DNA from: Planctomycetales bacterium | GTDB taxonomy: Bacteria; 4484-113 | Length of the DNA: 11,423 nucleotides | Direction: 5' to 3' | Assembly: GCA_037445915.1 (NCBI GenBank) | Contig: JBBIJQ010000012.1 | Span: 1 to 11,423, forward strand | Shown here: positions 1 through 11,423 of the stretch, piece after piece | How positions within the stretch are numbered: the first letter of the stretch is position 1 | Layout of the letters: each line of letters opens with the position of its first letter | The notes under the pieces: generated by a model | What the model was told of the DNA's origin: nothing | What the model saw: the letters and a program-made list of their open reading frames with translations, nothing else | Database searches by the model: none | Translations under genes and position numbers: made by a program

Positions 1-2
1 TC

Positions 3-599
3 ATTCCCCTCGTCGTCGGGCTGATCTCAGGCCAGGCGCGCACTGGGACGCCGCGAGCGTTCGCAATCGCGCTTTCTCTTGCGCTGGGCACGCTGGTTTC
101 ATTCACTGCAATCGGCGCGGTCGTCGCATTCGCTGGAGTTATCATCGGCGAGCTGGCGTGGCTGGAAACTACGCTGGCAGTAGTGTTCATCGCCGTGGGG
201 CTAAACCTCATCGGCGTCCTTCCCCTACCCCACTTTCACCCGCACTTTCACCCCAAGGGCAGCGGGCTTATCCCTGCGTTTGCGCTGGGGCTGCTTTACG
301 GCTGCGCGCACGGGCCGTGCTGCCTTGCATTCATGGCGCCGCTCGTGACGGTCGCGCTGGGCACGGCGGCATCAAGCGCATTGTTCGCCGCGCTGCTCCT
401 CGTGGCATTCGGCCTGGGACATTCGGCGGTCATCATGCTCGCCGGAACCGCCGCGGGAACGATGCAGCGCTATTTCAAGTGGAGCGAGAACAAGCGGTTC
501 TCATTGATACTCAGCCGCGTCTCCGGCGCGCTTGTGCTACTCGCGGGAATCTACATGCTCGCCGAGCCGTGGATTGCGTTTGGCAGGTTAGGCACTTGA
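3..599 (+). CDS. ccdA: Cytochrome c biogenesis CcdA / DsbD transmembrane-domain protein, 5'-truncated by the window edge
   Basis: The frame is open from base 3 (IPLVVGLISGQARTGTPRAFAIALSLALGTLVSF...) into the listed 183..599 ORF. It has several hydrophobic helices, a G-P-C motif (HGPCCLAFMAP), FGLGH and a C-terminal SGALVLLAGIY, all typical of CcdA. The first redox Cys motif would lie just upstream of the window. Confidence 0.85.
   Translation: MPLVVGLISGQARTGTPRAFAIALSLALGTLVSFTAIGAVVAFAGVIIGELAWLETTLAVVFIAVGLNLIGVLPLPHFHPHFHPKGSGLIPAFALGLLYGCAHGPCCLAFMAPLVTVALGTAASSALFAALLLVAFGLGHSAVIMLAGTAAGTMQRYFKWSENKRFSLILSRVSGALVLLAGIYMLAEPWIAFGRLGT
228..254 (+). repeat. 12-bp in-frame tandem duplication encoding PHFH-PHFH-P
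   Basis: CCCCACTTTCAC (228-239) and CCGCACTTTCAC (240-251), followed by CCC. Confidence 0.85.
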
Positions 600-607
600 G
601 GTATAAT
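580..607 (+). promoter_or_regulatory. Sigma70-type promoter for the leader ORF / ABC operon
   Basis: TTGGCA (580-585), a 16-nt spacer and a perfect TATAAT (602-607), in a locally AT-rich stretch right after the ccdA stop. Predicted start site is about 613-614. Confidence 0.65.
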
Positions 608-655
608 TCCGCATCCCAACGTGCGAGCGCAGGGACACATATTTTCATTATTGTA

Positions 656-665
656 TAAGGAGGTG
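656..665 (+). promoter_or_regulatory. Strong Shine-Dalgarno sequence for the small ORF at 674
   Basis: TAAGGAGGTG is a 10-nt match to the canonical anti-SD. It lies 8 nt upstream of ATG 674 and follows an A/T-rich stretch (638-655). Confidence 0.85.
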
Positions 666-673
666 GACGGCTG

Positions 674-784
674 ATGTTTGAACGCTATATGCGATCGGCG
701 CGGAACCATGCGCCCGTTTCCCGCATCTGTTTCAATAGTCATATGAACTTTGGCACGAACATCGGTTGTCCCCGCAGGGGTTAG
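674..784 (+). CDS. Unannotated 36-aa small ORF, putative leader (attenuator) peptide MFERYMRSARNHAPVSRICFNSHMNFGTNIGCPRRG
   Basis: Translated by hand from ATG 674 to TAG 782-784. It has a near-perfect SD, an upstream promoter and a terminator about 20 nt downstream. It is too short to appear in the ORF track. Confidence 0.75.
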   Translation: MFERYMRSARNHAPVSRICFNSHMNFGTNIGCPRRG

Positions 785-804
785 CGGCAAGGCATTTGCC
801 TTTC

Positions 805-836
805 GCCCTCTCCTTCGGGGGAGGGTTTTTCGTTTT
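805..836 (+). terminator. Intrinsic terminator (probable attenuator) upstream of the ABC ATPase
   Basis: Stem GCCCTCTCC (805-813) / GGGGAGGGT (818-826), closed by a c(UUCG)g tetraloop and followed by TTTTTCGTTTT (826-836). Confidence 0.85.
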
Positions 837-883
837 AAGCCCATCGTGCCACGGGCGGGGCGCTATGGAGGCGCTACAAGGCT

Positions 884-1759
884 ATGTTGGCAGTGAAAGT
901 CCAATCGGTAAACAAGCGGTTCGCTGTTTCGGCAGGCAAGGACAATGCCGCACTTGCACCCGGGATTAAGGGGGCGCTTGCTCGCGCGTTTCCCCCCAAG
1001 AAGATTAAGCACGCCGTTGACAGCGTTTCGTTTGAGGTTCAGCGCGGCGAGATATACGGCATCGTCGGCCCGAACGGCAGCGGCAAGAGCACGCTCATAC
1101 GCATGCTGAGCACGCTGCTCTACCCCGACACTGGCACTGTGACCATCTTCGGCCACGACGTGATGAAGCACCCTTACGAGGTGCAGAAGCTTATCAACCG
1201 CGTGAGCGTTGACGCGGCATTCTTCAAGAAGCTCTCGCCGTTTGAGAACCTGCTTTATGCGGCGCGGCTATACGGCGTGCCCGACAAGCAGGCGCTCGTG
1301 CGCTCAAAGGAAATGATGGACAAGCTCGGCTTTGAGGGCGGGCGCATGACCGACAGCCTGCAGGCGCTTTCGCGCGGGATGCAGCAAAAGGTCGCCATTG
1401 CGCGCGCGCTGCTCACCAGCCCGGTGCTGCTGCTGCTTGACGAGCCGACGACGGGCCTCGACCCTAAGAGCAAGCGCGACGTGCAGGGCTTCATTGAGGA
1501 AGTGCAGACCATCCACGACGCGACGGTCGTGCTCACGAGCCACGACATGGCGGAGATGGAGAAGCTCTGCCCGCGCATCGCGATCATGCACGCGGGGAAG
1601 TTCATCGCCGAAGACTCGGCTGACGGCTTGAAGCGCCTGGCGCGCGAGAAAGCCAACGGCAGCCTGCAGGCGAACGGCAACGGCGAAATCACGCTTGAGG
1701 ACGCATTCATCGCGCTGACCGGCGAGGAATGGGAAAAGGACGAAGAGGAAGTAGAGTAG
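884..1759 (+). CDS. ABC transporter ATP-binding protein, ABC-2/DrrA-like exporter family
   Basis: Walker A GPNGSGKST, signature LSRGMQQ, Walker B LLLLDE, D-loop PTTGLDP, H-loop TSHDM and a C-terminal TLEDAFIALTG typical of ABC-2 ATPases. GGAGG is at 867-871. Confidence 0.95.
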   Translation: MLAVKVQSVNKRFAVSAGKDNAALAPGIKGALARAFPPKKIKHAVDSVSFEVQRGEIYGIVGPNGSGKSTLIRMLSTLLYPDTGTVTIFGHDVMKHPYEVQKLINRVSVDAAFFKKLSPFENLLYAARLYGVPDKQALVRSKEMMDKLGFEGGRMTDSLQALSRGMQQKVAIARALLTSPVLLLLDEPTTGLDPKSKRDVQGFIEEVQTIHDATVVLTSHDMAEMEKLCPRIAIMHAGKFIAEDSADGLKRLAREKANGSLQANGNGEITLEDAFIALTGEEWEKDEEEVE

Positions 1760-1792
1760 AATCTATGCACTCACTTTTTGCAGGAGACGGGT

Positions 1793-2320
1793 ATGCCTGA
1801 AGCGCCTGAGACTATTAGAGTGATTATGCAGCGGCAAAGCTGCCGCTACTTCCTGCCCGACGAGTTCCCGCAGGAGCACCTTGAGCTGATATTTGAAGCG
1901 ATGCGATGGGCTCCCAGCGCAGGCAATACGCAGCCCTGGCGCTTCCACGTCATTCGCAGCACGCCGCTGAAGCTGGAAATCGCCGCGGCCGCGTTCGGGC
2001 AGAAGTTCATCGCCGACGCGCCGGTCATCATCGCCGTCGTCGCGCTGCCTGAAGTCAGCCGCGCGCAGTACGGCGAGCGCGGTGCGGGGCTTTACTGCAT
2101 CCAGGACACTGCGGCGGCGGTGCAAAACGCGATGCTTGCCGCGGCGGCGCTGGGGCTGGGAACTTGCTGGATAGGCGCGTTTGACGAAGCGCTTGCAGCC
2201 AAGGCGCTGAAGCTTGCGCCCAACGAGCGTCCGCTCGCGTTCATTCCCATCGGCAAGCCCAAGCGCATGGGCCACCGCACCGACCGTAAGCCCAAGAGTG
2301 AAATTGTGGTTGGGGAATGA
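1793..2320 (+). CDS. Nitroreductase-family FMN-dependent oxidoreductase
   Basis: RQSCRYF, WAPSAGNTQPWRF, DTAAAVQNAMLAAAALGLGTCWIG and a C-terminal RK motif. ATG 1793 is preferred over TTG 1778 because AGGAG (1782-1786) lies 6 nt upstream of it. Confidence 0.95.
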   Translation: MPEAPETIRVIMQRQSCRYFLPDEFPQEHLELIFEAMRWAPSAGNTQPWRFHVIRSTPLKLEIAAAAFGQKFIADAPVIIAVVALPEVSRAQYGERGAGLYCIQDTAAAVQNAMLAAAALGLGTCWIGAFDEALAAKALKLAPNERPLAFIPIGKPKRMGHRTDRKPKSEIVVGE

Positions 2321-3267
2321 GCGCCGCGCCTGAAAAGACGAAGGCCATCATCCCCGTCGCGGGCGGGGGAAAGCGGCTGCGGCCGTTCACGGAAAATTAC
2401 CCGAAGGCCCTGTTGCAGTGCGCCGACAGGCCAGTGCTGGGGCATATTCTACGGCGCGTGGAGAAGATGGGGGTGCGCGATGTCATCCTCGTTACCGGCG
2501 AGCATACGCAGCTGATTCAGGATTACGCGCAGGCGGCGTTTCCCGCGCTGGCGATTACGTGCGTGCAGCAGACCGAAGCGCACGGCCTGGGGCATGCGTT
2601 GTGGACGGCGCGCGAGGCTGCAGCGGGCGCGGACGAACTGCTAATTATATACGGCGACAGCATCATTGACGCGGGACTGCCGCAAGGCGGGGAATGGGAG
2701 CTTGCTATCGGTGTGATGATGGTGCGCGACCCCGCGAACTTCGGCGTTGTGGTTACCGACGGCGACCGAATCATCCAGCTTGTTGAAAAGCCCGCGCAAC
2801 CCATCTCCTACCGCGCCATTGCGGGAATGAACATCGTGCGCAATCCCACGGCGCTGTTCGGCGCGCTTGATGAGCTTGTTGCAAAGGACGCGCGAACGCG
2901 CGGCGAAATACAGCTCACCGACGCGTTTGAGCTGATGCTTGAGCGCGGGCATGTCCTGCATTCGTTTCGCCTGCAAAGATGGCTTGATTGCGGCAACCCC
3001 GAAGGGATGCTGGATGCGAACCGGATGCTCTTGCAGCGCTTGCAGCCGGTGGAGATTGAAGGCTGCGAGATAAAGCCGCCGGTGTTCATCGCGCCGGACG
3101 CGATGGTTGAGAAGTCGCGCCTCGGCCCCTGCGTGGCCATTGCATCAGGTGCGGAAGTGCGCGGGTGCGCGCTTAGCGACTGCATCGTGAACACGGGCGC
3201 GAAGCTCATCGGCCTCACGCTTGCGAACGCTATTGTGGGGCCGGCAGAAGAAAGGGGCAAAGGGTAA
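2317..3267 (+). CDS. Sugar-phosphate nucleotidyltransferase (long-form glucose-1-phosphate thymidylyltransferase-like) with a short C-terminal left-handed beta-helix
   Basis: KAIIPVAGGGKRLRP...PKALL, GLGHA, YGD, LVEKP, GEIQLTDA and WLDCG, plus hexapeptide-like repeats at the C-terminus. It has an ATGA overlap with the nitroreductase stop. Exact substrate cannot be determined from the sequence. Confidence 0.9.
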   Translation: MSAAPEKTKAIIPVAGGGKRLRPFTENYPKALLQCADRPVLGHILRRVEKMGVRDVILVTGEHTQLIQDYAQAAFPALAITCVQQTEAHGLGHALWTAREAAAGADELLIIYGDSIIDAGLPQGGEWELAIGVMMVRDPANFGVVVTDGDRIIQLVEKPAQPISYRAIAGMNIVRNPTALFGALDELVAKDARTRGEIQLTDAFELMLERGHVLHSFRLQRWLDCGNPEGMLDANRMLLQRLQPVEIEGCEIKPPVFIAPDAMVEKSRLGPCVAIASGAEVRGCALSDCIVNTGAKLIGLTLANAIVGPAEERGKG

Positions 3268-3281
3268 GGGATTTGTTAACA

Positions 3282-3343
3282 GGAGTGCTGACCTCCAGGT
3301 CGCGTGTTTCCAAGTAATGTGCCGACCTGGAAGTTGACGCCCC
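3282..3343. repeat. Inverted doublet of REP-like palindromes
   Basis: GGAGTGCTGACCTCCAGGTCG (3282-3302) and CGACCTGGAAGTTGACGCCCC (3323-3343) are reverse complements at 15/21 positions. Each unit is itself an imperfect palindrome (GACCT-CC-AGGTC core). Confidence 0.65.
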
Positions 3344-3354
3344 CGCAATGAAGC

Positions 3355-3375
3355 GCACGTGCGTGACGCATGTGC
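3355..3375. repeat. Near-perfect palindrome
   Basis: GCACGTGCGT-G-ACGCATGTGC, 10-bp arms with one mismatch (a G:U pair on the + strand). Confidence 0.7.
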
Positions 3376-3437
3376 CACATTCCAGACTTCAGAAGCCCCA
3401 GACGGCGGCCCACAGGTGATCGCCTTACAGCAGATTC

Positions 3438-3466
3438 CAGAGCACGGCAGGATTGCCGTGTCTCTG
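3438..3466. repeat. REP-like hairpin
   Basis: CAGAG-CACGGCA-GGAT-TGCCGTG-T-CTCTG, a 12-bp stem with one bulge and no U-tract. Confidence 0.7.
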
Positions 3467-3564
3467 AGGGGAGTCCAGCGCCGGACTAAAGCCACGGTGT
3501 GTAGCTATGAAGTTTATTCTGCGCCAGGCCTTCCACGTAAACGTTCTACGTTCTACCAATAGGA

Positions 3565-4443
3565 ATGCTAGAATCTTCGCGCATGGATGAAGCCACTGAG
3601 AGAACGCGCTTCTGGGTATTGCTTGCGCTGGCGGGGATATACGTATCCATCCTCGCATGGCGCAGCGAGATGGGCATCCCTCTATTCGCCTGGGCGCTCA
3701 TCGGCCTCGCTGCGCTTGCGTCGCTAACATTCTACTGGTGGACAACGCGCACTGAAGCTTCCCGGATGGCGCGCGCCATCTTCTTCCTCGTGGCAGGCGC
3801 GTTTGCGTTCTACAGCGTCATCCCGTTGATATTCCTCGCTTTGACGCGCCTGTTCCCGCGCAACTCGCTGATATGGCACGTGCCAGGAATGGAGTTTCTT
3901 GCAGAAATGCTCTGGTATGCCGTGCCCATCGCGTTGGTTTGGTGGCTATTCCAGTTTGCGTCGCCTGCGGATTGGCGCGAGCGTTTCTTTCTAAAGCTCA
4001 ATTGGTACCGCGAGGACTGGGCGTTGCTCATCGGCTTTGCCGCCATTACAGCCATCGCGATGTGGCTGTATATGTACTTTGTAGGCTCTGGCAGCGGGTG
4101 GAGCGCGCTGGGCACGCAGAAGCTAACAGCGGCGTTTGCCATATTCGGTATGCTGTCTGCGGCTGCCAACGCGCTGATGGAAGAGCTTTGGTTCCGCGGG
4201 TATTTTCTCGGCATCAGCGCGCGGCTCATCCCGCCAGGCTGGGGCATCGCCGCCACATCGCTTCTGTTCGGCTTCTTGCACTTCAAAGACGGCATCCCCA
4301 ACGGCTGGATAGGGCTTATCCTCGCGGGGATTTACGGCCTGGCGCTCGCATGGTGGACATGGAAGCGCGGCAGCATTTGGCAAGCCGTCGCCTTGCACTT
4401 CATTACCGACCTCGTAATCTTCTTCGGCGCGAACGCGCGATAG
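3565..4443 (+). CDS. CPBP family intramembrane glutamic endopeptidase (type II CAAX protease / Abi)
   Basis: Motif 1 EELWFRG, motif 2 FGFLH and a C-terminal HFITD motif in a multi-pass membrane protein. The true start may be ATG 3583. Confidence 0.93.
   Translation: MLESSRMDEATERTRFWVLLALAGIYVSILAWRSEMGIPLFAWALIGLAALASLTFYWWTTRTEASRMARAIFFLVAGAFAFYSVIPLIFLALTRLFPRNSLIWHVPGMEFLAEMLWYAVPIALVWWLFQFASPADWRERFFLKLNWYREDWALLIGFAAITAIAMWLYMYFVGSGSGWSALGTQKLTAAFAIFGMLSAAANALMEELWFRGYFLGISARLIPPGWGIAATSLLFGFLHFKDGIPNGWIGLILAGIYGLALAWWTWKRGSIWQAVALHFITDLVIFFGANAR
3566..3574 (+). promoter_or_regulatory. Extended -10 element, possibly driving a leaderless CPBP mRNA
   Basis: TGcTAGAAT ends 8 nt before the in-frame ATG at 3583, and there is no SD between them. 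Confidence 0.45.
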
Positions 4444-4450
4444 CCGCGCG

Positions 4451-6223
4451 CTAGGCGGCTGCTTTTTCGGCTTCGGCCGCCAGCTCGTCGGCATCCATAT
4501 CCTCGTCAAGACTCGCGTATCCCTTGCCGTGCGCCAGCAGGAACGCGATGAGAATGATATGCAGCAGGAAACCTCCCCCGAAAAACGCCAGCGCGCCTGC
4601 GGGGTATGAGCCGTAGGCTTCTTTGAACTCGCCAAACCATCCTTGGTAGAAGATGAGAGTGAGCAGCCCTGGTATCCAGTACTTTATCAACACTGTGAAT
4701 TGCTCATTGCGCTTGCAGCGCCAGCTCCACCCCGAAACAGCCAGCGCGCCCACTGCGATAAGCGCAGGCACCCATAGCTTCGCGGCGTAAGCCCAAAGCT
4801 GCGCGCCCGGCGCGGGCGTTTCATACTGCGCAGCGATGCTCAAAGCGACTTCAGCCTTAACGAGATTCGTCCATGCAAGCGCGGCTGCTATGATGAGCAG
4901 TATCGCAGGGACGATGAAAGTCATAACCCAGTGGAATAGCTGCGCGAGCTTCAGGCCCGGCTGCAAGTTGTGGTGCCTGATAATCTTATCCACGCCATAT
5001 ATGTAGCCGACGATGATGCACTCCGCCACGCCGATGAAAAGCAGGATATATGACGATATGTAGTGGTCAACAATGTCCAGAGCGTAAAGCCCGCCGCGCG
5101 TCACGAAGAGAAGCCCCAAGGCGAAGCCGAATACCGCCAGCGCGGTGAGGATGGCTTTCATCGGCCAGCGGAACTTGTCCCAAAAGGTTGAGGCGACAAC
5201 CTGGACAATTGACATTGAGCTTGTTATCCCGGCAAAGAACACGAGCATGAAGAAGCACACCGCGAAGAACTCCGGCCATATCGGCATGCGTGACAGGGCT
5301 TCAGGGAAAATGACGAAGGCAAAGCCTATGCCGGACTGCATCACCTGGTCAAGGGGCTTGCCGCTGATATGGGCGAGGTAGCCCAGCGTGCCGAAGCTGC
5401 CGAGGCCGAGGAAAATCTCAAAGTAGCCCGAGTTCGCCAGCGCTAGGCTGAACGCTGAACTGACCATGCTCGTGCGCCGGGGGAGATAACTGGCAAACGC
5501 AATCATAATGCCGAACGCCGCTGAGATGCTGAAGAATATCTGGCTAAACGCGTCCACCCACAGGCGGGGCTGGCCAAGCTTTGTCCAGTCCGGCGTCAAG
5601 TAGGCAGTAATGCCGTCCATCGCGTGCGGCAGCGTCACGCCCCTGATGACCAGAATGAGCGCAAGCACTGCCAGCACCGGCATTAGTATCTTGGAGAAAA
5701 GCTCCATTCCTTTTTGCAGGCCACGCGAGATAACCCACCAGTTGAATAACCAGACCAGCGCCAGCGTGAGCACGATCGCGGGGACTACCGTCTCCAGCTT
5801 CCACACCGACCCTGATGTTTGCAGGAACGTGTTAAAGAAAAACGTGTTGGTATCGCTACCCCAGGCGAGCGTCGGCGCGTAAACGAGGTAGTTGGTTACC
5901 CACGCCAGCACGACGGCGTAATAGCTAATTAGAAAGACCATCTGCACGCAGGGTATCCAGCCGATGACTTCCAGCGGCTTGCTGATACGGCGGAAGACTA
6001 GCGGCGCAGTGCGGCGATGGCGGTGGCCCAGCCCGAATTCAAGTATGACGATGGGGACAGCCGCCGTGAGGATGGCGAAGATGTAAACAATGATGAATGT
6101 CCCGCCGCCCCATTCGTAGGCGAGGTAGTTGAAGCGCCAGATGTTGCCCAGCCCTACCGCCGAGGCAATGCAGGCGAGAATGAAACCAAACCGGTTCTTC
6201 CATTGTTCGCGTTGAACAGGCAT
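4451..6223 (-). CDS. Sodium-dependent amino-acid transporter, NSS/SNF family (LeuT-like)
   Basis: REQW...ASAVGLGNIWRF (TM1), SYY (TM3), QIFFSIS (TM6) and FFAGITSS (TM8). An SD-like GGGGAGGG lies upstream of the ATG. Confidence 0.96.
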   Translation of the reverse strand: MPVQREQWKNRFGFILACIASAVGLGNIWRFNYLAYEWGGGTFIIVYIFAILTAAVPIVILEFGLGHRHRRTAPLVFRRISKPLEVIGWIPCVQMVFLISYYAVVLAWVTNYLVYAPTLAWGSDTNTFFFNTFLQTSGSVWKLETVVPAIVLTLALVWLFNWWVISRGLQKGMELFSKILMPVLAVLALILVIRGVTLPHAMDGITAYLTPDWTKLGQPRLWVDAFSQIFFSISAAFGIMIAFASYLPRRTSMVSSAFSLALANSGYFEIFLGLGSFGTLGYLAHISGKPLDQVMQSGIGFAFVIFPEALSRMPIWPEFFAVCFFMLVFFAGITSSMSIVQVVASTFWDKFRWPMKAILTALAVFGFALGLLFVTRGGLYALDIVDHYISSYILLFIGVAECIIVGYIYGVDKIIRHHNLQPGLKLAQLFHWVMTFIVPAILLIIAAALAWTNLVKAEVALSIAAQYETPAPGAQLWAYAAKLWVPALIAVGALAVSGWSWRCKRNEQFTVLIKYWIPGLLTLIFYQGWFGEFKEAYGSYPAGALAFFGGGFLLHIILIAFLLAHGKGYASLDEDMDADELAAEAEKAAA

Positions 6224-6312
6224 GTGAACCCTCCCCGGAAATCATTTAGCGCCCGCGCAGGCGGCCTGGCGCGCAGTTCCTCACGCGCAGCTACGCCCCG
6301 CGCAAGCATAGG

Positions 6313-6324
6313 ATTATGTTAGCA
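6313..6324 (-). promoter_or_regulatory. Possible -10 / extended -10 for the NSS gene
   Basis: The minus strand reads TGCTAACATAAT (TGn-TAACAT overlapping CATAAT) in an AT-rich patch about 90 nt upstream of the start. Confidence 0.35.
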
Positions 6325-6376
6325 CAGGAAAGCGCCTGTTTTCGCGGAGTAGGCAGCCCGTTACGCTTTCGTCCAG

Positions 6377-6392
6377 CGCCCCGACCGGGGCG
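6377..6392. other. GC-rich hairpin just downstream of the 6404..6949 gene
   Basis: CGCCCC-GACC-GGGGCG. There is no convincing U-tract on either strand, so a terminator role is uncertain. Confidence 0.45.
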
Positions 6393-6403
6393 TCAGGCTA
6401 GCC

Positions 6404-6949
6404 TCATCCGCCTCCGCCGAACTCCATGCCGACAGTGCCGTCTTCATTGCTGAAGGGGTTCTTCCCGCCGGTATCGGGCTTGGCGACGACCGGTTTCTTG
6501 CGCGGCTTCGCAAGCTCCATGAACTTCACTGCGTATGGCCCTGTCCCTGCCTCAGCGACGCCGCCCGGCCCCCACACCGCCTTCAGCGCCGAGAATTCGG
6601 CGCCCTTCGCGGGGTCGTCGTCAAAGTCGGCCAGCACGACTGCTGCCTTGAGCGTCTTGTCGCACATCGTAGCAGTGCGCACCGCGTCCATCATCGCATT
6701 GCGCACTGCAGGCGGCGCAGTGTCAGGAGGAACCGACAGGCGCAGGCTGAGCGTCTTTGCGCCCTCGCCGCCCTTGATGTCGCGCTCGGTCACGATATAT
6801 GTAGGCACTGTTGAGGGGTCGTAGCCGTAGTCTTTCCATGAGAATTTGCCGGCGCCGCCTTTGCCGGCCAGCGCGCTCACGCCGATTACGGCGGCCAATA
6901 CAATCGCGGCCGCTAATACCAGCCCCAGCACGAGCTTATTCGCTTCCAT
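6404..6949 (-). CDS. Hypothetical membrane-anchored or exported protein (181 aa)
   Basis: N-terminal Lys followed by a hydrophobic helix (LVLGLVLAAAIVLAAVIGVSALA), a Gly linker, a small alpha/beta-like domain and a low-complexity tail. SD GGGAGG at 6955-6960, with its own promoter. Confidence 0.8.
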   Translation of the reverse strand: MEANKLVLGLVLAAAIVLAAVIGVSALAGKGGAGKFSWKDYGYDPSTVPTYIVTERDIKGGEGAKTLSLRLSVPPDTAPPAVRNAMMDAVRTATMCDKTLKAAVVLADFDDDPAKGAEFSALKAVWGPGGVAEAGTGPYAVKFMELAKPRKKPVVAKPDTGGKNPFSNEDGTVGMEFGGGG

Positions 6950-6982
6950 CGTTGCCTCCCAGGCATCCCTATAACACCAGTA

Positions 6983-6991
6983 ATTATACCA
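6983..6991 (-). promoter_or_regulatory. Extended -10 promoter (TGgTATAAT) for the 6404..6949 gene
   Basis: Perfect TGn-TATAAT on the minus strand, 33 nt upstream of the ATG. Confidence 0.7.
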
Positions 6992-6992
6992 T

Positions 6993-7153
6993 CTAGCAGC
7001 CTATAGCGTAGGCGGGAGCTATAGGCGGGGAGTGAAGGACGCCTCGGTGTCGCATGCGGCAAGTTAGCGCGCAAAAGCGCATTTTCGTCTTGGACAAGCG
7101 GTTTCTACATCGGCTGCTCTAGTGAATGCAACCTACGCTATGACTGAGCCTAG
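6993..7153. repeat. Intergenic segment with nested inverted and direct repeats
   Basis: ATAGCGTAGG (7003-7012) / CCTACGCTAT (7132-7141) form a perfect 10-bp inverted repeat. GCCTATAGC (6999-7007) / GCTATAGGC (7018-7026) form a hairpin. TAGGCGGG occurs twice (7009-7016, 7022-7029). CTAG lies at both ends. Confidence 0.55.
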
Positions 7154-7161
7154 AGTAAATG

Positions 7162-8559
7162 CTAATATGCACCCTTCCGGCTCAACAGCGCCCCTGGCGT
7201 GCGAATGATGATGGAGAAGTCAAGGGCGGGGCTCCAGTTCGTGATGTAGTAGATGTCAAGGTCAATGCGCTCGCGGTATGTGAGGTCGCTGCGGCCGGAG
7301 ACCTGCCAAAGGCCGGTAAGGCCGGGCGGGAAGGACTGCAGGATGCGGCCCCAGTCGCCGTATTTCGCCAGCTCCTCGGGCACGATGGGGCGCGGCCCCA
7401 CGAGGCTCATCTCGCCGCGCAGGATGTTCACGAGCTGGGGGAGTTCGTCAAGGCTCGTCTTGCGCAGGATGCTCCCGGCCTTGGTAATGCGCGGGTCGTT
7501 CTTGAGCTTCATCGTGCGCTTGAATTCGTCTTCCTGCTCCGGCGTCAGCTTCACGCCGCAGCGCATGGTGCGGAACTTCAGCAGCATGAACGTCTTGCCG
7601 TCGGCGCCCAGGCGCTCGTGGCGGAAGAACACGGGTCCCGGCGACGACAGCCAAGCCATTAGCGCGGCGATGCCGAAGAGCGGCGAGAGGATGATGAGCG
7701 CAGCGCCCGCTGTGACGACGTCGGCTGCGCGCTTAACGCTGCGGATGGCGGCAAGCTCGTGGCGCGACTTGGGGGTTATCTGCGGGAATCCGAATTCCGG
7801 CGAGAACTTCACGCTGCCCAAGAGCAGCCCTTCGCCCGCGGGAATCTGGCGCACGCGCACGCGCCCTTCATAGCCGAGGATGAACAGCGACTGCCAAAGT
7901 CCCGGCGTAGGCGTGAGCAGGCACACGACGTCGGTGACGCCGTTTGCCGCGATGTAGTCAAGGAAGTGCTGCGGTGTTTCGCGCGAGCCGAAGAATCGCC
8001 GCGTCACTTCGTCGCCCGCCATGCGGATAAACGTGGCGCGCTTGCCGAAAATGCGGCCTATGCGCGACTCCAGGACTTCAGCGACCGGCCCCCCGCCAAG
8101 CATAAGCACGACAGGCGCGGTGCGGTTCGCGGTGAGGATGCGCAGCGCCCAGCGTGCGAGGATGATGAGCACGAGCGCGATGATGAAAATGAAGAGGAAA
8201 GTCAGGCGCGACGATGGAAGCCCGCGCACGAGGAACGATAGCGTTATGGATGCGATACACGAAAGCCCGATGGCGGCTGGGATGCGTGACATCTCGGAAA
8301 ATGCGCTTTCGCGGAGACAGGCAAAGTAAAGGCCGTAATAGCCGAAGATGACAAGCCAGAACGGAAGCGAGATGATGTAGAAAACGTAATAGTTGACGAG
8401 CGGGACGCTGCCCAACGGGACTGCCAGCGCGCTGTGGAAGCGCAGCGTGTATGCTGCGAGGAACGCCAGCAGCAGGCATCCCGCGTCAACGAGCAGGTGC
8501 AGCAGCGAGAAATTGAGCCTTGCTGGGAGCGGCTGTGAAATGTGGGCGTCGTTGGGCAT
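7162..8559 (-). CDS. Polyprenyl-phosphate hexose-1-phosphate transferase (WcaJ/WbaP/CpsE-type priming glycosyltransferase)
   Basis: Four N-terminal TM helices, a central cytoplasmic domain, and a C-terminal bacterial sugar transferase domain (KRAAD, KFRTM, DPRIT, SLDELPQ, SLVGPRP, PGLTGLWQVSGRS, ending GAY). SD GAGGTGA at 8563-8569. Confidence 0.95.
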   Translation of the reverse strand: MPNDAHISQPLPARLNFSLLHLLVDAGCLLLAFLAAYTLRFHSALAVPLGSVPLVNYYVFYIISLPFWLVIFGYYGLYFACLRESAFSEMSRIPAAIGLSCIASITLSFLVRGLPSSRLTFLFIFIIALVLIILARWALRILTANRTAPVVLMLGGGPVAEVLESRIGRIFGKRATFIRMAGDEVTRRFFGSRETPQHFLDYIAANGVTDVVCLLTPTPGLWQSLFILGYEGRVRVRQIPAGEGLLLGSVKFSPEFGFPQITPKSRHELAAIRSVKRAADVVTAGAALIILSPLFGIAALMAWLSSPGPVFFRHERLGADGKTFMLLKFRTMRCGVKLTPEQEDEFKRTMKLKNDPRITKAGSILRKTSLDELPQLVNILRGEMSLVGPRPIVPEELAKYGDWGRILQSFPPGLTGLWQVSGRSDLTYRERIDLDIYYITNWSPALDFSIIIRTPGALLSRKGAY

Positions 8560-8567
8560 TGGTCACC

Positions 8568-9671
8568 TCAGAGCAATTGTTGCACTGCGCCGAGCATCTT
8601 CTCGTTGAATGTCCCGGTGCTGAACCTCTCGGCGCAGGCGCGGATATCATCGCGGTTCCATTTTATGACGTGGTAGCGGCTGACGGCGCGGTCAACCGCC
8701 TCCGGCGACGGCTCGTTGAAGAAGTTGCCGGAGACCTCGGAAATTACCGTTTCCGTCGCGCCACCGCGCCCATAGGCGATGACCGGCGTGCCGCACGCCA
8801 TAGCCTCGCACGGGATGAGCCCGAAATCTTCTTCGCTGGGGAACAACACTGCATGCGCGTTCTGGTAGAGCGTGCGCAGCTCTTCGTCGGTCACCGTGCC
8901 AAGGAACTCAATGCGCTTGTTCTTCGCCATCCCCATGAGCCTCTCGCGCAACGGCCCATCGCCAACGACTAAAAGCGGCTCGTCGCGGTAATTGAACGCG
9001 TCAATGACCATCTCCATTCCCTTGTAGGGGACGAAGCGCCCGACGAGCAGGAAATACTCGTTTTCGCGGTCCTGCGCGGGAGTGAAGAAGCGCGTGTCCA
9101 CGGGCGGGTGGATGACGACCGACTTGCGGTTGTAAGTCTTTTCAATGCGCCGCTGCACCGTCTCGCTTATCGCTATGAAGCGGTCTACGCGCTGCGCCGC
9201 CTGCCAGTCCCACATGCGCAAGTAGTGCGCCGACGCGCGGAAAACGGTTTCGCGGAAGCGCGACAGGCGAGTGTGCTTGAGGTAGGTCTGGTAGAGGTCC
9301 CACACATAACGCATCGGCGTGTAGCAATAACAAAGGTGCGTTTGGCGAGAATGCGTCAGCACGCCCTTCGCCGCCGCATGCGACAGCGATATGACGAGGT
9401 CGTAATCGCGCAGGTCAAACTGCTCTACCGCGTAAGGGTAAAGCGGAAGCAGCGACTGGTAGCGGTGTGTCGCGCCGGGGAACTTGTTGAGCACCGACGG
9501 GATGATGTGCGCGTCGTCAAGCTCCTCGGGCGTGCCGCCGGGGTCGTGGAACAGCGTGAAGATGGGTGCGGTGGGAAATAGGCGGTGCATCTCAATAAGC
9601 ACGCGCTCTGCGCCGCCGAAGGTGACTATCCAGTCATGGACGAGCGCGATGCGTGACGGCGCCTTATCCAT
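8568..9671 (-). CDS. GT4-family glycosyltransferase (WbaZ-like)
   Basis: RIALVHDW...GGAERVL, YCYTPMRY.WD, VIHPPVD, GRFVPYKG and an intact acidic motif FPSEEDFGLIPCEAMACGTPVI. It overlaps the upstream gene by 8 bp. Confidence 0.95.
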   Translation of the reverse strand: MDKAPSRIALVHDWIVTFGGAERVLIEMHRLFPTAPIFTLFHDPGGTPEELDDAHIIPSVLNKFPGATHRYQSLLPLYPYAVEQFDLRDYDLVISLSHAAAKGVLTHSRQTHLCYCYTPMRYVWDLYQTYLKHTRLSRFRETVFRASAHYLRMWDWQAAQRVDRFIAISETVQRRIEKTYNRKSVVIHPPVDTRFFTPAQDRENEYFLLVGRFVPYKGMEMVIDAFNYRDEPLLVVGDGPLRERLMGMAKNKRIEFLGTVTDEELRTLYQNAHAVLFPSEEDFGLIPCEAMACGTPVIAYGRGGATETVISEVSGNFFNEPSPEAVDRAVSRYHVIKWNRDDIRACAERFSTGTFNEKMLGAVQQLL

Positions 9672-11037
9672 TGGGCTTCTCCCCTGTCATTTGGATGACA
9701 AACGGGATTTGCGAAAGCGGAAGGCCTGCGAATATGAGCAGGTTGCCGCCCCGGTTGAACGCAGGCTTCGTCACCTCGCCGGTAAGCAGGTTCAGCGTCG
9801 CGACCGGCTTCAGGCCAGGCCGGAAGATGGCCAGGTTCGTCGTGCGGTCATACATGTTCATAGTGCTTGTCCAGTAGATGTAATAAGTCGCGCGGGACGC
9901 GGGGTTGTAAAGGTGGTGCGCGAACACCGGGTCGGCCGCCGCGGGAAAGTTGTTGTGCATCTGGAACAAGTAATACGGGTCAAAGAAGTACGAGCCTTTG
10001 AGCAGCGGCGTAAGCCTGCGCACCGCTTTCGCGGCGGGCTTTTCCATCCCGTCGTAGCCGTAAAGCCCCATGCAGCTTTGGGGAAACACATTGTTCAAAT
10101 CTGTGTCCATTAGCGATGCCAGGAAAATGCGGGACGCCCCGCCGTTGAGCAGGTAAAACACGCTGCGGCAGAGCATTGAAACCTGGTCAAGCTGCGACAC
10201 TCCCAGCGGGTCGTAAGCGGTTGAAACGCCCAGCGCGGTTATGAAAAACGGCTTGCCGTACCGGCGCAAGCTAGCCATCATCTGCGCCGTTTCATAAACC
10301 GAAGGTGGCGACAGTTCCTTGTACCGGAGGGGGTGTTCCATGTGCGCGGGATCGGGAAAGAGGCTGAATGAGATAGCGTCCACGCGGTCAAAGATGCGCG
10401 CGCCTTTAAGCTCTGCAATAAACTTGTAGTCCACGCCTTGAATCCCGCCGCAGACTATGCCGAATGAACGCTGGCTGCTCTCGCGGTATGCGCGGACGGC
10501 GCTCAAAAGGATGTGGTAGCTTTCCGCCGAAACGCCAAGGTGGTAGTTGAGGTCGTCTAGGAGCTGGTAGTAGTCCACCAAGCTTCCCACTTCTGCGTCA
10601 ACCAGCCGGAAAAACTCTATGAAAGTGTCCGGCGACGGCATCCCGCTTTCCATTGTCAGCATAACCTGCGCGCCCTGCGCCCGAAGCTTGCTGAGAACAT
10701 CGCCCAGGACAATCAGGTTCGGCGAGTTGGGGTCGGAGAAGTCTTCTTGGCTGATGGTCAGTCGGTATGTCCCGAAGCCGAAGCTCCCTGCGTTGGCGAG
10801 CAGCTCAGGCGTAAGATATCCGGGCGCCAGGTTGAGGCCCAGAGGTTGGTAGTTCGGCCCTTGCACCAAATCAGGATTTGTGGGGATGACCTTGAACGGC
10901 GCTTTGGTGTCCAGGTCGTCTTTCTGCGCGGGGAAACCTGGGGGAAGCTTAATGGAATCGCCAGCCGCCGGCTGGGGCGCAGCGAGTGCGCCGAACGCCA
11001 GCAGCAACAGAAGCGCTATGAGCTTTCGGGCGATCAT
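9664..11037 (-). CDS. Exported protein with a probable GH clan-A (GH39/GH5-like) TIM-barrel fold; catalytic residues appear degenerate
   Basis: Sec signal peptide (MIARKLIALLLLLAFGALAA). Barrel-like motifs occur in clan-A order: LGLN, YRLTI, VMLTM, VDYYQLLDDLN, IVCGG, VDAISFSLF, KPFFITALG, GASRIF, MGLYGYDGMEKPA. The C-terminal domain is beta-rich. The CDS is confident; the family assignment is by eye. Confidence 0.7.
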   Translation of the reverse strand: MIARKLIALLLLLAFGALAAPQPAAGDSIKLPPGFPAQKDDLDTKAPFKVIPTNPDLVQGPNYQPLGLNLAPGYLTPELLANAGSFGFGTYRLTISQEDFSDPNSPNLIVLGDVLSKLRAQGAQVMLTMESGMPSPDTFIEFFRLVDAEVGSLVDYYQLLDDLNYHLGVSAESYHILLSAVRAYRESSQRSFGIVCGGIQGVDYKFIAELKGARIFDRVDAISFSLFPDPAHMEHPLRYKELSPPSVYETAQMMASLRRYGKPFFITALGVSTAYDPLGVSQLDQVSMLCRSVFYLLNGGASRIFLASLMDTDLNNVFPQSCMGLYGYDGMEKPAAKAVRRLTPLLKGSYFFDPYYLFQMHNNFPAAADPVFAHHLYNPASRATYYIYWTSTMNMYDRTTNLAIFRPGLKPVATLNLLTGEVTKPAFNRGGNLLIFAGLPLSQIPFVIQMTGEKPNG

Positions 11038-11051
11038 TGTTTGTGCCGCGG

Positions 11052-11423
11052 TCAGGCGAGTGAATTATAGACCGAGCGGTGAGATGCGGCAATCCGCGCC
11101 ATGGAAAGCCGCGCCTTTAGCCGCGCTTGGTGCGCCAGGCGGCTCGCCGCAGCTTCTTCAAAGCCGTCACAAAGCCTGATTAGGAATGCTGCGGCTTTCT
11201 CCGGGCTGTCGCCGGACTCCAGTGAATACGGCAGGTCGGGTGCGAACTGCCTCACTACCGCAGGATGAACCCCGAAGCACAAAATCGGGGTGCGGAATGA
11301 CAGCGCATTTATCAGCGAGCTCCGGTGCGTGTCAAACGAGAATGGGAACAGCGCCAGCAACGACTCTTCTGCGAGCGCGCGCAATGCAGGTAGCGGCTGC
11401 GTTGGGATGAACTCCACACCCTC
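11052..11423 (-). CDS. C-terminal part of a GT-B (GT4-like) glycosyltransferase homologue, 5'-truncated by the window edge
   Basis: The frame is open to the window end. VEFIP...LRALAEESLLALFPFSFD...LINALSFRTPILC and a terminal LSMARIAASHRSVY helix parallel the GT4 C-terminal Rossmann domain. It lies in the polysaccharide cluster. Confidence 0.65.
   Translation of the reverse strand, partial: EGVEFIPTQPLPALRALAEESLLALFPFSFDTHRSSLINALSFRTPILCFGVHPAVVRQFAPDLPYSLESGDSPEKAAAFLIRLCDGFEEAAASRLAHQARLKARLSMARIAASHRSVYNSLA
11064..11092 (-). promoter_or_regulatory. Candidate internal sigma70 promoter inside the 3' end of the upstream gene
   Basis: The minus strand reads TTGCCG (11092-11087), a 17-nt spacer, then TATAAT (11069-11064), 26 nt before ATG 11037. 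Confidence 0.55.

Follow-up and report, generated by a model that had tools for sequence, protein, structure and literature searches.

Introduction

A known precedent for ribosome-sensing control of an ABC transporter is bmrB-bmrCD of Bacillus subtilis (PMC4191407; Reilman et al. 2014), for which that paper describes a small open reading frame (ORF) ahead of the ABC gene, a terminator, an antiterminator and an anti-antiterminator, a peptide with no run of one amino acid, and a logic whereby efficient translation leads to termination and slowed translation to read-through. Here, we examine a candidate leader of similar build at positions 580-836 of a stretch of 11,423 nucleotides (nt) from a Planctomycetales bacterium (GTDB lineage Bacteria; 4484-113; GenBank assembly GCA_037445915.1, contig JBBIJQ010000012.1, positions 1 to 11,423 of the forward strand), this whole stretch being referred to as “the window” throughout. 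The leader precedes genes for an ABC ATPase, a nitroreductase-family protein and a sugar-1-phosphate nucleotidyltransferase, and we read it, with somewhat better than even confidence, as a ribosome-mediated (leader-peptide) transcription attenuator of the operon that these genes probably form.

Each of the bmrB traits listed above has a counterpart in the window, for which the same logic is proposed. The two differ in that the bmrB terminator, according to the same paper (PMC4191407), lies inside the coding region, whereas the ORF of the window stops 20 nt before the stem, and in that bmrCD is a full heterodimeric exporter, whereas in the window a DrrA-like ATPase gene stands alone, with genes for a nitroreductase and a nucleotidyltransferase behind it; they share no sequence similarity, and the system of the window is known from sequence alone.

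Attenuation in the Escherichia coli trp leader is also described in PMC4191407. There, as in the leader proposed here, helices 1:2 and 3:4 together terminate and helix 2:3 allows read-through, segment 2 is hidden by a ribosome that has reached the stop codon, and the default without translation is termination; unlike the trp leader, however, the window has no tandem regulatory codons, its operon is not one of amino-acid biosynthesis, and its segment 1 is the translation start region, whereas that of E. coli trp is made of the stalling codons. A third point of reference is the upstream ORF (uORF) in the whiB7 leader of mycobacteria, at which, according to PMC10274678, stalling is thought to cause antitermination and whose sequence varies by species; it is alanine-rich and controls a transcription factor, whereas the uORF of the window shows no such enrichment.

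Layout of the Leader

All features given below are on the plus strand unless stated otherwise. A sigma-70-type promoter-like site at 580-607 (-35 at 580-585, 16-nt spacer, -10 at 602-607), already pointed out in an earlier note on this DNA as TTGGCA-N16-TATAAT, matches at 11 of 12 positions, is the sole such site in 1-4600 and reaches into the end of the preceding gene, which encodes a DsbD/CcdA-like membrane protein (3-599; stop codon 597-599). The case for its being a promoter stands on match quality, position and a -10 hexamer identical in G001, the only other genome of the same genus (the genome of the window being G000), and not on the number of sites; the -35 hexamer is weaker in G001. 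Transcription would then start near 611-614, just ahead of a 5' leader hairpin at 614-635 (614-617:632-635 and 620-622:627-629 in the minimum free energy (MFE) structure of 613-836), which is retained in G001 via one-sided changes at 622 and 628.

A strong Shine-Dalgarno (SD) sequence, AAGGAGGTG, at 657-665, the “near-perfect” one of the earlier note, stands 8 nt ahead of the ATG at 674; the 18 nt in which it is embedded (653-670) are the same in G001. The 36-codon uORF that begins there (674-784, TAG stop at 782-784), the leader peptide candidate, is present in the ORF listing, so that a short ORF with its own predicted ribosome-binding site is at hand, with SD, ATG and ORF all kept in G001. 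Its stop codon is placed such that a terminating ribosome would cover the antiterminator arm described below and end short of the terminator stem. Translation of the uORF is suggested by this placement of the stop, together with an SD and ATG that are conserved and an ORF length that does not vary.

The predicted intrinsic terminator at 805-836 had likewise been recognised, and both the scan and its folding energy agree: a stem of nine pairs, six of them G-C (805-813:818-826; -16.9 kcal/mol on its own), closes a TTCG loop and leads into a T-rich tract at 826-836, of T5-CG-T4 pattern and running to 836. It heads the list of seven terminator-like sites found by a lenient scan, ties for the longest stem among them and is 100% identical in G001. 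By sequence prediction, it thus lies between the leader ORF and the gene to be regulated, and the case for promoter and terminator together is one of quality, arrangement and conservation of both sites. What separates it from the ABC start is a conserved 47-nt spacer (837-883; sequence reading and alignment with G001) carrying the GGAGG of the ABC gene (867-871), in which, as had been claimed, a scan for promoter-like sites found none. A 7-nt direct repeat, GGCGCTA (859-865 and 870-876), flanks this GGAGG and is kept in G001 apart from the last base of either copy. Promoter, SD, ORF and terminator hence follow each other in an order and at a spacing that fit an attenuator.

Two Competing Structures

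The MFE structure of 755-840 computed with RNAfold is a long hairpin that disrupts the terminator (-34.5 kcal/mol), the centroid being the terminator form; the fold is more stable than expected (z = -2.59, with 2 of 200 shuffles equally stable). In this long hairpin, the antiterminator 5' arm at 769-780, covering the last five sense codons of the uORF and identical in G001, pairs as 769-774:816-821 and 776-780:810-814 and encloses a spacer hairpin at 784-806 (core 789-793:798-802), which is compatible with the terminator and differs in G001 only in its loop, by one extra base. Of the three helices folded by hand in the earlier note, 1:2, around CCCC-GCA-GGGG, was recovered in the fold of 763-836, and 3:4 is the terminator itself; 2:3 exists as the pairing 776-780:810-814, though it had been drawn too small, since 769-774:816-821 is added to it around the spacer hairpin. 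That note had let its case hang on a 2:3 helix that is competitive in energy or conserved: within 763-836, the antiterminator state comes to -30.9 kcal/mol and the terminator state to -27.8 kcal/mol, or -31.7 kcal/mol with the 1:2 helix, and the conserved arm has been mentioned above. The arm can also fold on itself (770-773 with 777-780). Transcripts grown from 740 adopt the antiterminator by 815-822, ahead of completion of the terminator 3' arm, and when the upstream part was shuffled with the terminator kept, the observed local terminator probability of 0.59 compared with a mean of 0.95 (10 of 300 shuffles as low). An antiterminator that is exclusive with the terminator, and that overlaps both it and the portion of the leader that a ribosome can cover, is therefore found in silico.

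What would appear from the modelling to be the decisive extra element was missed in the earlier note. It is a long-range helix of 16 base pairs (bp), P1, whose 5' strand (665-680) contains the start codon and whose 3' strand (756-771) overlaps the antiterminator arm by 3 nt (769-771). In the full leader (613-836), P1 has a pair probability of 0.89-1.0, the structure with P1 and the terminator reaches -77.8 vs. -73.9 kcal/mol, i.e., an advantage of ~4 kcal/mol, and the terminator probability is 0.95-0.98. As P1 occupies the first three bases of the antiterminator arm, it would act as an anti-antiterminator, so that a leader free of ribosomes would terminate by default. With P1 included, the modelled leader shows the complete four-segment layout of classical attenuators.

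The effect of translation was simulated by masking a 30-nt footprint at each uORF codon and computing the terminator probability, which was 0.32-0.43 with the P site (the peptidyl site of the ribosome) at codons 1-3, 0.59 at codon 5, 0.26 at codon 27 and at least 0.92 from codon 28 through the stop. In other words, the terminator forms in the simulation either when the last nine codons are occupied or when there is no ribosome at all, and footprint masking of the G001 leader gives like behaviour. The proposal that segment 2 is masked once a ribosome stands at the stop codon, with termination as the outcome, thus agrees with the simulated values; the companion proposal, that stalling a few codons before the stop would allow read-through, does not, the terminator probability being at its high plateau there. 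The amplitude of the ribosome-mask switch, 0.63, was reached in 1 of 150 shuffles, a generous figure, as the mask position was picked after P1 had been seen.

The mechanism that we propose would run as follows. Leader RNA transcribed from the promoter at 580-607 could take two forms, a terminating one made of P1 (665-680:756-771) and the terminator hairpin (805-826), and a read-through one made of the antiterminator (769-780:810-821). With no ribosome on it, P1 would form and lock the first antiterminator bases, leaving the terminator to fold; a ribosome in step with the polymerase would reach the last codons or the stop, cover the antiterminator arm and likewise lead to termination; a lagging ribosome, anywhere from the start to about codon 27 during synthesis of 810-826, would keep P1 open, so that the antiterminator forms first and the operon is transcribed. 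Since it is the lagging ribosome that would give read-through, the leader would report slowed translation. The simplest signal would be slowed translation in general, given a peptide with neither a run of a single residue nor a conserved basic-x-basic motif, and the slowing itself could come from translation inhibitors or from a shortage of charged tRNA.

Conservation in Close Relatives

In a phylum set of 24 genomes, covariance model and DNA searches placed the leader in two, G000 and G001; it was not found in the other 22, the weak matches in G010 and G017 covering the terminator part only. DNA searches among relatives at the level of family and order returned G001 as the sole leader match (two further 23-nt matches are 23S rRNA), and a 24-nt pattern searched in metagenome contigs gave no match. 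A 541-nt query aligns to G001 with 82% identity, and 763-843 is identical there bar the loop of the spacer hairpin, as is the ATG. The uORF has the same length, frame, start and stop in both genomes, all three indels between them falling outside it. Taken with the structures above, the leader-peptide attenuator layout put forward in the earlier note is real, competitive by computation and conserved as a unit in one congener.

The gene upstream of the leader in G001 encodes an SBF-family transporter and not a DsbD-like protein, and the ABC ATPase and nitroreductase genes follow as in the window. As the upstream gene differs while promoter, leader and ABC gene stay together, the leader seems to travel with the ABC operon. 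The SBF-family gene itself (L002:2262-3311, minus strand) sits between the DsbD-like gene and the leader, and ~40 nt resembling the 3' end of the DsbD-like gene persist just upstream of the promoter in G001.

These comparisons bear on the notion that the terminator merely ends the DsbD-like gene, everything else having come together by chance within a long 3' untranslated region. As the notion would have it, the stretch from the stop codon of that gene to 805 is free of terminators; yet, the leader is kept in G001 behind a different neighbour, 763-843 is more conserved between the two genomes than the flanking coding DNA, and the shuffle controls speak against chance, which makes this explanation very improbable indeed.

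The leader was also met in contigs from three DNA runs of other studies (X5, X9 and X11), with ~85-88% identity across it. Differences in these contigs are reported here among those listed only, a further 407 substitution and 17 indel rows lying outside the listing. In X5, 676-743 is replaced by diverged sequence of unchanged length; in X11, the ORF has indels of +1 and -1, those in the 5' untranslated region sum to -7, and a one-base insertion follows 793, in the spacer hairpin; all three have variants at 618-627, within the region of the 5' hairpin. Contig X14, which comes from a relative and an RNA library, extends over 760-941 and thus past the terminator into the ABC gene, which may be a weak hint of read-through, weak because DNA may be present in RNA libraries; no weight is given to its lack of cover over 300-725.

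Evolution of the Candidate Leader Peptide and Points Weighing Against Attenuation

Several results weigh against the leader-peptide attenuator. The number of sites, to begin with, supports neither signal: the single promoter-like site equals the average over 50 shuffles (1.0), i.e., chance level, and the seven terminator-like sites compare with 5.5 expected in shuffles, which is no evidence either. Translation of the uORF and function of the terminator are both inferred from sequence. The peptide also looks unconstrained: the 25 uORF differences between G000 and G001 are spread 8/8/9 over the codon positions, an evenness pointing to a lack of purifying selection, and codon changes are 5 synonymous vs. 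14 non-synonymous, with 22 of 36 residues identical (61%), whereas the neighbouring ABC gene shows 15/14/67 by codon position and 93% amino acid identity. That the frame is open in a single congener is weak evidence, as random substitutions leave it open in 16% of trials, and the conserved blocks of the peptide coincide with strands of RNA helices, which would fit a non-coding RNA as well. In X9, moreover, a one-base deletion at 740 has no compensating insertion among the differences listed. The footprint model itself closes P1 around a ribosome in mid-ORF and thereby predicts termination at codons 7-24; that P1 would in fact close around a stalled ribosome, as the model assumes, is doubtful. 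Finally, covariation, which is suggestive only, comes down to three pairs in two full sequences. These are the three pairs changed on both sides (one in P1, two in the hairpin at 680-696) out of the 42 of the drawn structure in G001, another three being changed on one side and 1 of the 84 cells of the structure being unpaired. Within P1, 15 pairs counted, the figures are one changed on both sides, three on one side and one broken; of the two hairpins within the uORF delineated by this pair comparison (680-696 and 697-714), the first shows double-sided changes in two of its five pairs, whereas all 6 bp of the second are unchanged. When the partner column was shifted by 1-3 positions, 0-1 double changes resulted, and a shuffle control on the pair changes, matched in 70 of 500 shuffles, is uninformative with two sequences.

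Part of this evidence is what a switch working without translation would predict, in which P1 closes a domain of three hairpins with a small molecule, a protein or an RNA as its ligand, stabilisation of the domain decides between terminator and antiterminator, and the ORF is incidental. The architecture does resemble that of a riboswitch, with several hairpins joined at a junction, a helix closing it and an expression platform after it, and the substitutions preserve pairs over amino acids. Riboswitch classes, though, are usually widespread, and by the covariance model this element is confined to the two congeners; the whole window gave no Rfam match at the gathering threshold, and 500-1000 yielded nothing credible even at E up to 10 (best sub-threshold matches at most 18.6 bits vs. 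cut-offs of 40-80). Such a switch would also leave the conserved SD and ATG 8 nt apart, the fixed ORF length and the stop placement unexplained, and uORFs are what the leaders of homologous ABC genes in other phyla are based on. We regard it as rather unlikely.

The unit might instead be an independent small gene, with a transcript of ~220 nt yielding a 36-residue protein or a small RNA, and with the ABC operon transcribed by leak-through or from an unrecognised promoter. It is, after all, a complete promoter-SD-ORF-terminator unit, and a Logan contig, matched with the peptide query extended by five in-frame upstream codons, carries a called 36-residue protein 92% identical to the peptide of the window; terminated attenuator RNAs can, moreover, act in trans in other bacteria (PMC6614838). 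Against a gene in its own right stand the relaxed evolution of the peptide next to that of its neighbour, the lack of any Pfam or NCBIfam match to it and of any relative found beyond that one near-identical sequence (the G001 version as query gave no match), the overlaps of antiterminator and P1, which would lack purpose, the spacer before the ABC gene, free of promoter-like sites, and the fact that the unit remains with the ABC gene when the upstream neighbour changes. We therefore hold an independent gene to be unlikely.

As for what a leader-peptide attenuator might sense, no stretch of one repeated amino acid is seen in the peptide alignment, in line with the earlier note, and no run of regulating codons of the trp/his/leu type was found, the operon not being a biosynthetic one. 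The R/K-x-R/K motif of macrolide-type arrest, which it had also reported missing, is indeed absent from the peptide of the window; the G001 peptide has a basic-x-basic motif at residues 3-5, an unconserved one.

Other coding possibilities at this site were considered and rejected. A precursor of a ribosomally synthesised and post-translationally modified peptide is argued against by the variable peptide and by the lack of a cyclodehydratase or similar gene nearby, the nitroreductase being only a weak match to SagB (45 bits vs. a cut-off of 78). An antisense gene at 551-844 (minus strand, 97 residues) has no Pfam match and is not a single ORF in G001, and the overlapping plus-strand ORFs at 750-896 and 766-969 have no Pfam match.

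Leaders of Homologous ABC ATPases in Other Phyla

Searching upstream of homologous ATPases, as the earlier note had advised, gave a divided result: such genes are commonly preceded by uORF/terminator leaders of their own, which makes an attenuator plausible here too, but the leader of the window was found in just one other species genome, G001. Protein-based scans of genome and metagenome contigs collected 160 loci whose ABC ATPases are 50-65% identical to that of the window (the best 62-65%), and at none of them did nhmmer find its leader. Upstream counts were made on the 141 loci for which 330 nt or more of preceding sequence are available: 53 have a hairpin with a T-run within 300 nt of the ABC start, 40 share a common G+C-rich stem sequence (20 in tandem), and 31 have a uORF ending at most 70 nt before the first hairpin. 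With seven of these left out, as the chosen ORF lacked the end motif (L054, L055, L061, L097, L151, L173 and L194), the remaining 24 uORFs have a Gly-Arg-Ser-Ala-Pro consensus 0-5 codons before the stop. In this set, the end of the uORF could pair with the first hairpin, namely with its 5' arm and loop (mean duplex energy -21.9 vs. -16.1 shuffled), the duplex energy being matched by at most 5 of 200 shuffles at nine of them. An ABC-2 permease gene lies downstream in all six loci examined, followed by a GNAT acetyltransferase gene in L046 and L058. Rfam holds no family for these Arg-x-Ala-Pro uORF/terminator leaders, and literature searches, supplements not covered, found no account of leaders of this sort ahead of ABC-2 or DrrA-like genes.

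A conserved leader of this kind recurs among L027-L206 (e.g., L204:1760-1960, L070:2480-2760 and L046:2560-2760), in Chloroflexota, Bipolaricaulota and other phyla, with a uORF ending in Arg-x-Ala-Pro-(Ile/Val), then a small hairpin rich in A+U, and either a single terminator or two, of the same G+C-rich stem. As the tandem stems are alike, the 3' arm of the first could pair with the 5' arm of the second, and one antiterminator could then undo both terminators. A second leader type precedes the same ABC family in at least four loci (L024, L042, L135 and L142), ~80-250 nt upstream; in all but L024, which has Met for Pro, the last residues of its uORF are Pro-Glu-Val-Leu and two more, its terminator stem starts CCCTCGATC or CCTCGATC, and an upstream copy of the 3' arm is present in three of the four.

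Like the leader of the window, those of the ABC-2 exporters use the 3' end of the uORF as the antiterminator strand, followed by a short spacer hairpin and the terminator. The possibility that the former is a rearranged descendant of the cross-phylum Arg-x-Ala-Pro peptide family, working by nascent-peptide pausing, alone or in response to a ligand, starts from the peptide of the window, which has Ala-Pro at residues 13-14 with Arg three residues before. The motif, at codons 10-14, would halt one ribosome, and a queued one would hold the start region and keep P1 open, which would make the leader a nascent-peptide sensor and not simply a gauge of translation speed; the Arg-x-Ala-Pro motif recalls the RAPP/RAGP arrest peptides (PMC10951233). 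However, 21 sense codons follow Ala-Pro in the window against 0-5 in the ABC-2 exporter leaders, its terminator stem is single and of another sequence in place of one or two copies of the shared G+C-rich stem, and, unlike at those loci, no permease or GNAT gene lies downstream. There is no sequence relation by nhmmer, hhalign aligns one column, and, when motifs are scored without gaps, the uORF of the window is equalled by 48% of the small ORFs in the genome (8,276 of 17,360); given the last two results, we do not place its leader in the family, and such a descent appears quite improbable. The window thus seems to share topology and the kind of gene controlled with the leaders of other phyla, and relatedness could not be demonstrated.

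The Putative Operon and Its Surroundings

According to protein family scans, the leader is followed by genes for an ABC ATPase that is DrrA-like, below the NCBIfam cut-off (884-1759), a nitroreductase-family protein (1778-2320) and a sugar-1-phosphate nucleotidyltransferase (2317-3267); with a gap of 18 nt between the first two and an overlap of 4 nt between the last two, the three genes probably form one operon. No permease gene adjoins the ABC ATPase, here or at the sister-family loci L117, L120 and L124 described below, and the two ABC-2 permease matches of the genome are on other contigs. X5, X9 and X11 all lack one base at 958 and have one extra base after 967, within the N-terminal extension of the ABC protein; either the reading frame changes and is then restored, or the alignment has shifted in a variable stretch.

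Among the other seven genomes of the window's family, no ABC orthologue was found at E 1e-60 or better, and in the sister family of the same order 10 of 10 genomes have one (57-64% identical). In three of these (L117, L120 and L124), the ABC gene follows another gene with a gap of at most 33 nt and no leader; in the other seven, the sequence upstream of it looks coding. Read by eye from the translation, the preceding ORF in L117, L120 and L124 looks like a methyltransferase, and acetyltransferase-like ORFs come after the ABC gene in two of the three.

Farther downstream in the window, a gap of ~300 nt (3268-3564) before a CPBP-family protease gene (3565-4443) holds no notable ORF and has short inverted repeats near 3290-3335, and a 181-residue ORF at 6404-6949 (minus strand) has no Pfam or NCBIfam match.

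Conclusions

The control logic considered here is well known, and the leader of the window is probably a genus-specific copy of a known kind, that of bmrB and trp. If our reading is correct, it would show leader-peptide attenuation worked out for one case in an uncultured phylum of which very few genomes have been sampled (24 in the set used here), and in which the trp/bmrB logic would then be in use together with an anti-antiterminator that buries the start codon. As homologues in several phyla carry conserved, uncatalogued uORF/terminator leaders, this ABC ATPase family appears to be a recurrent target of ribosome-sensing control. The operon of the window would, in that case, probably be induced by translation stress, which would give a first functional handle on its permease-less ATPase.

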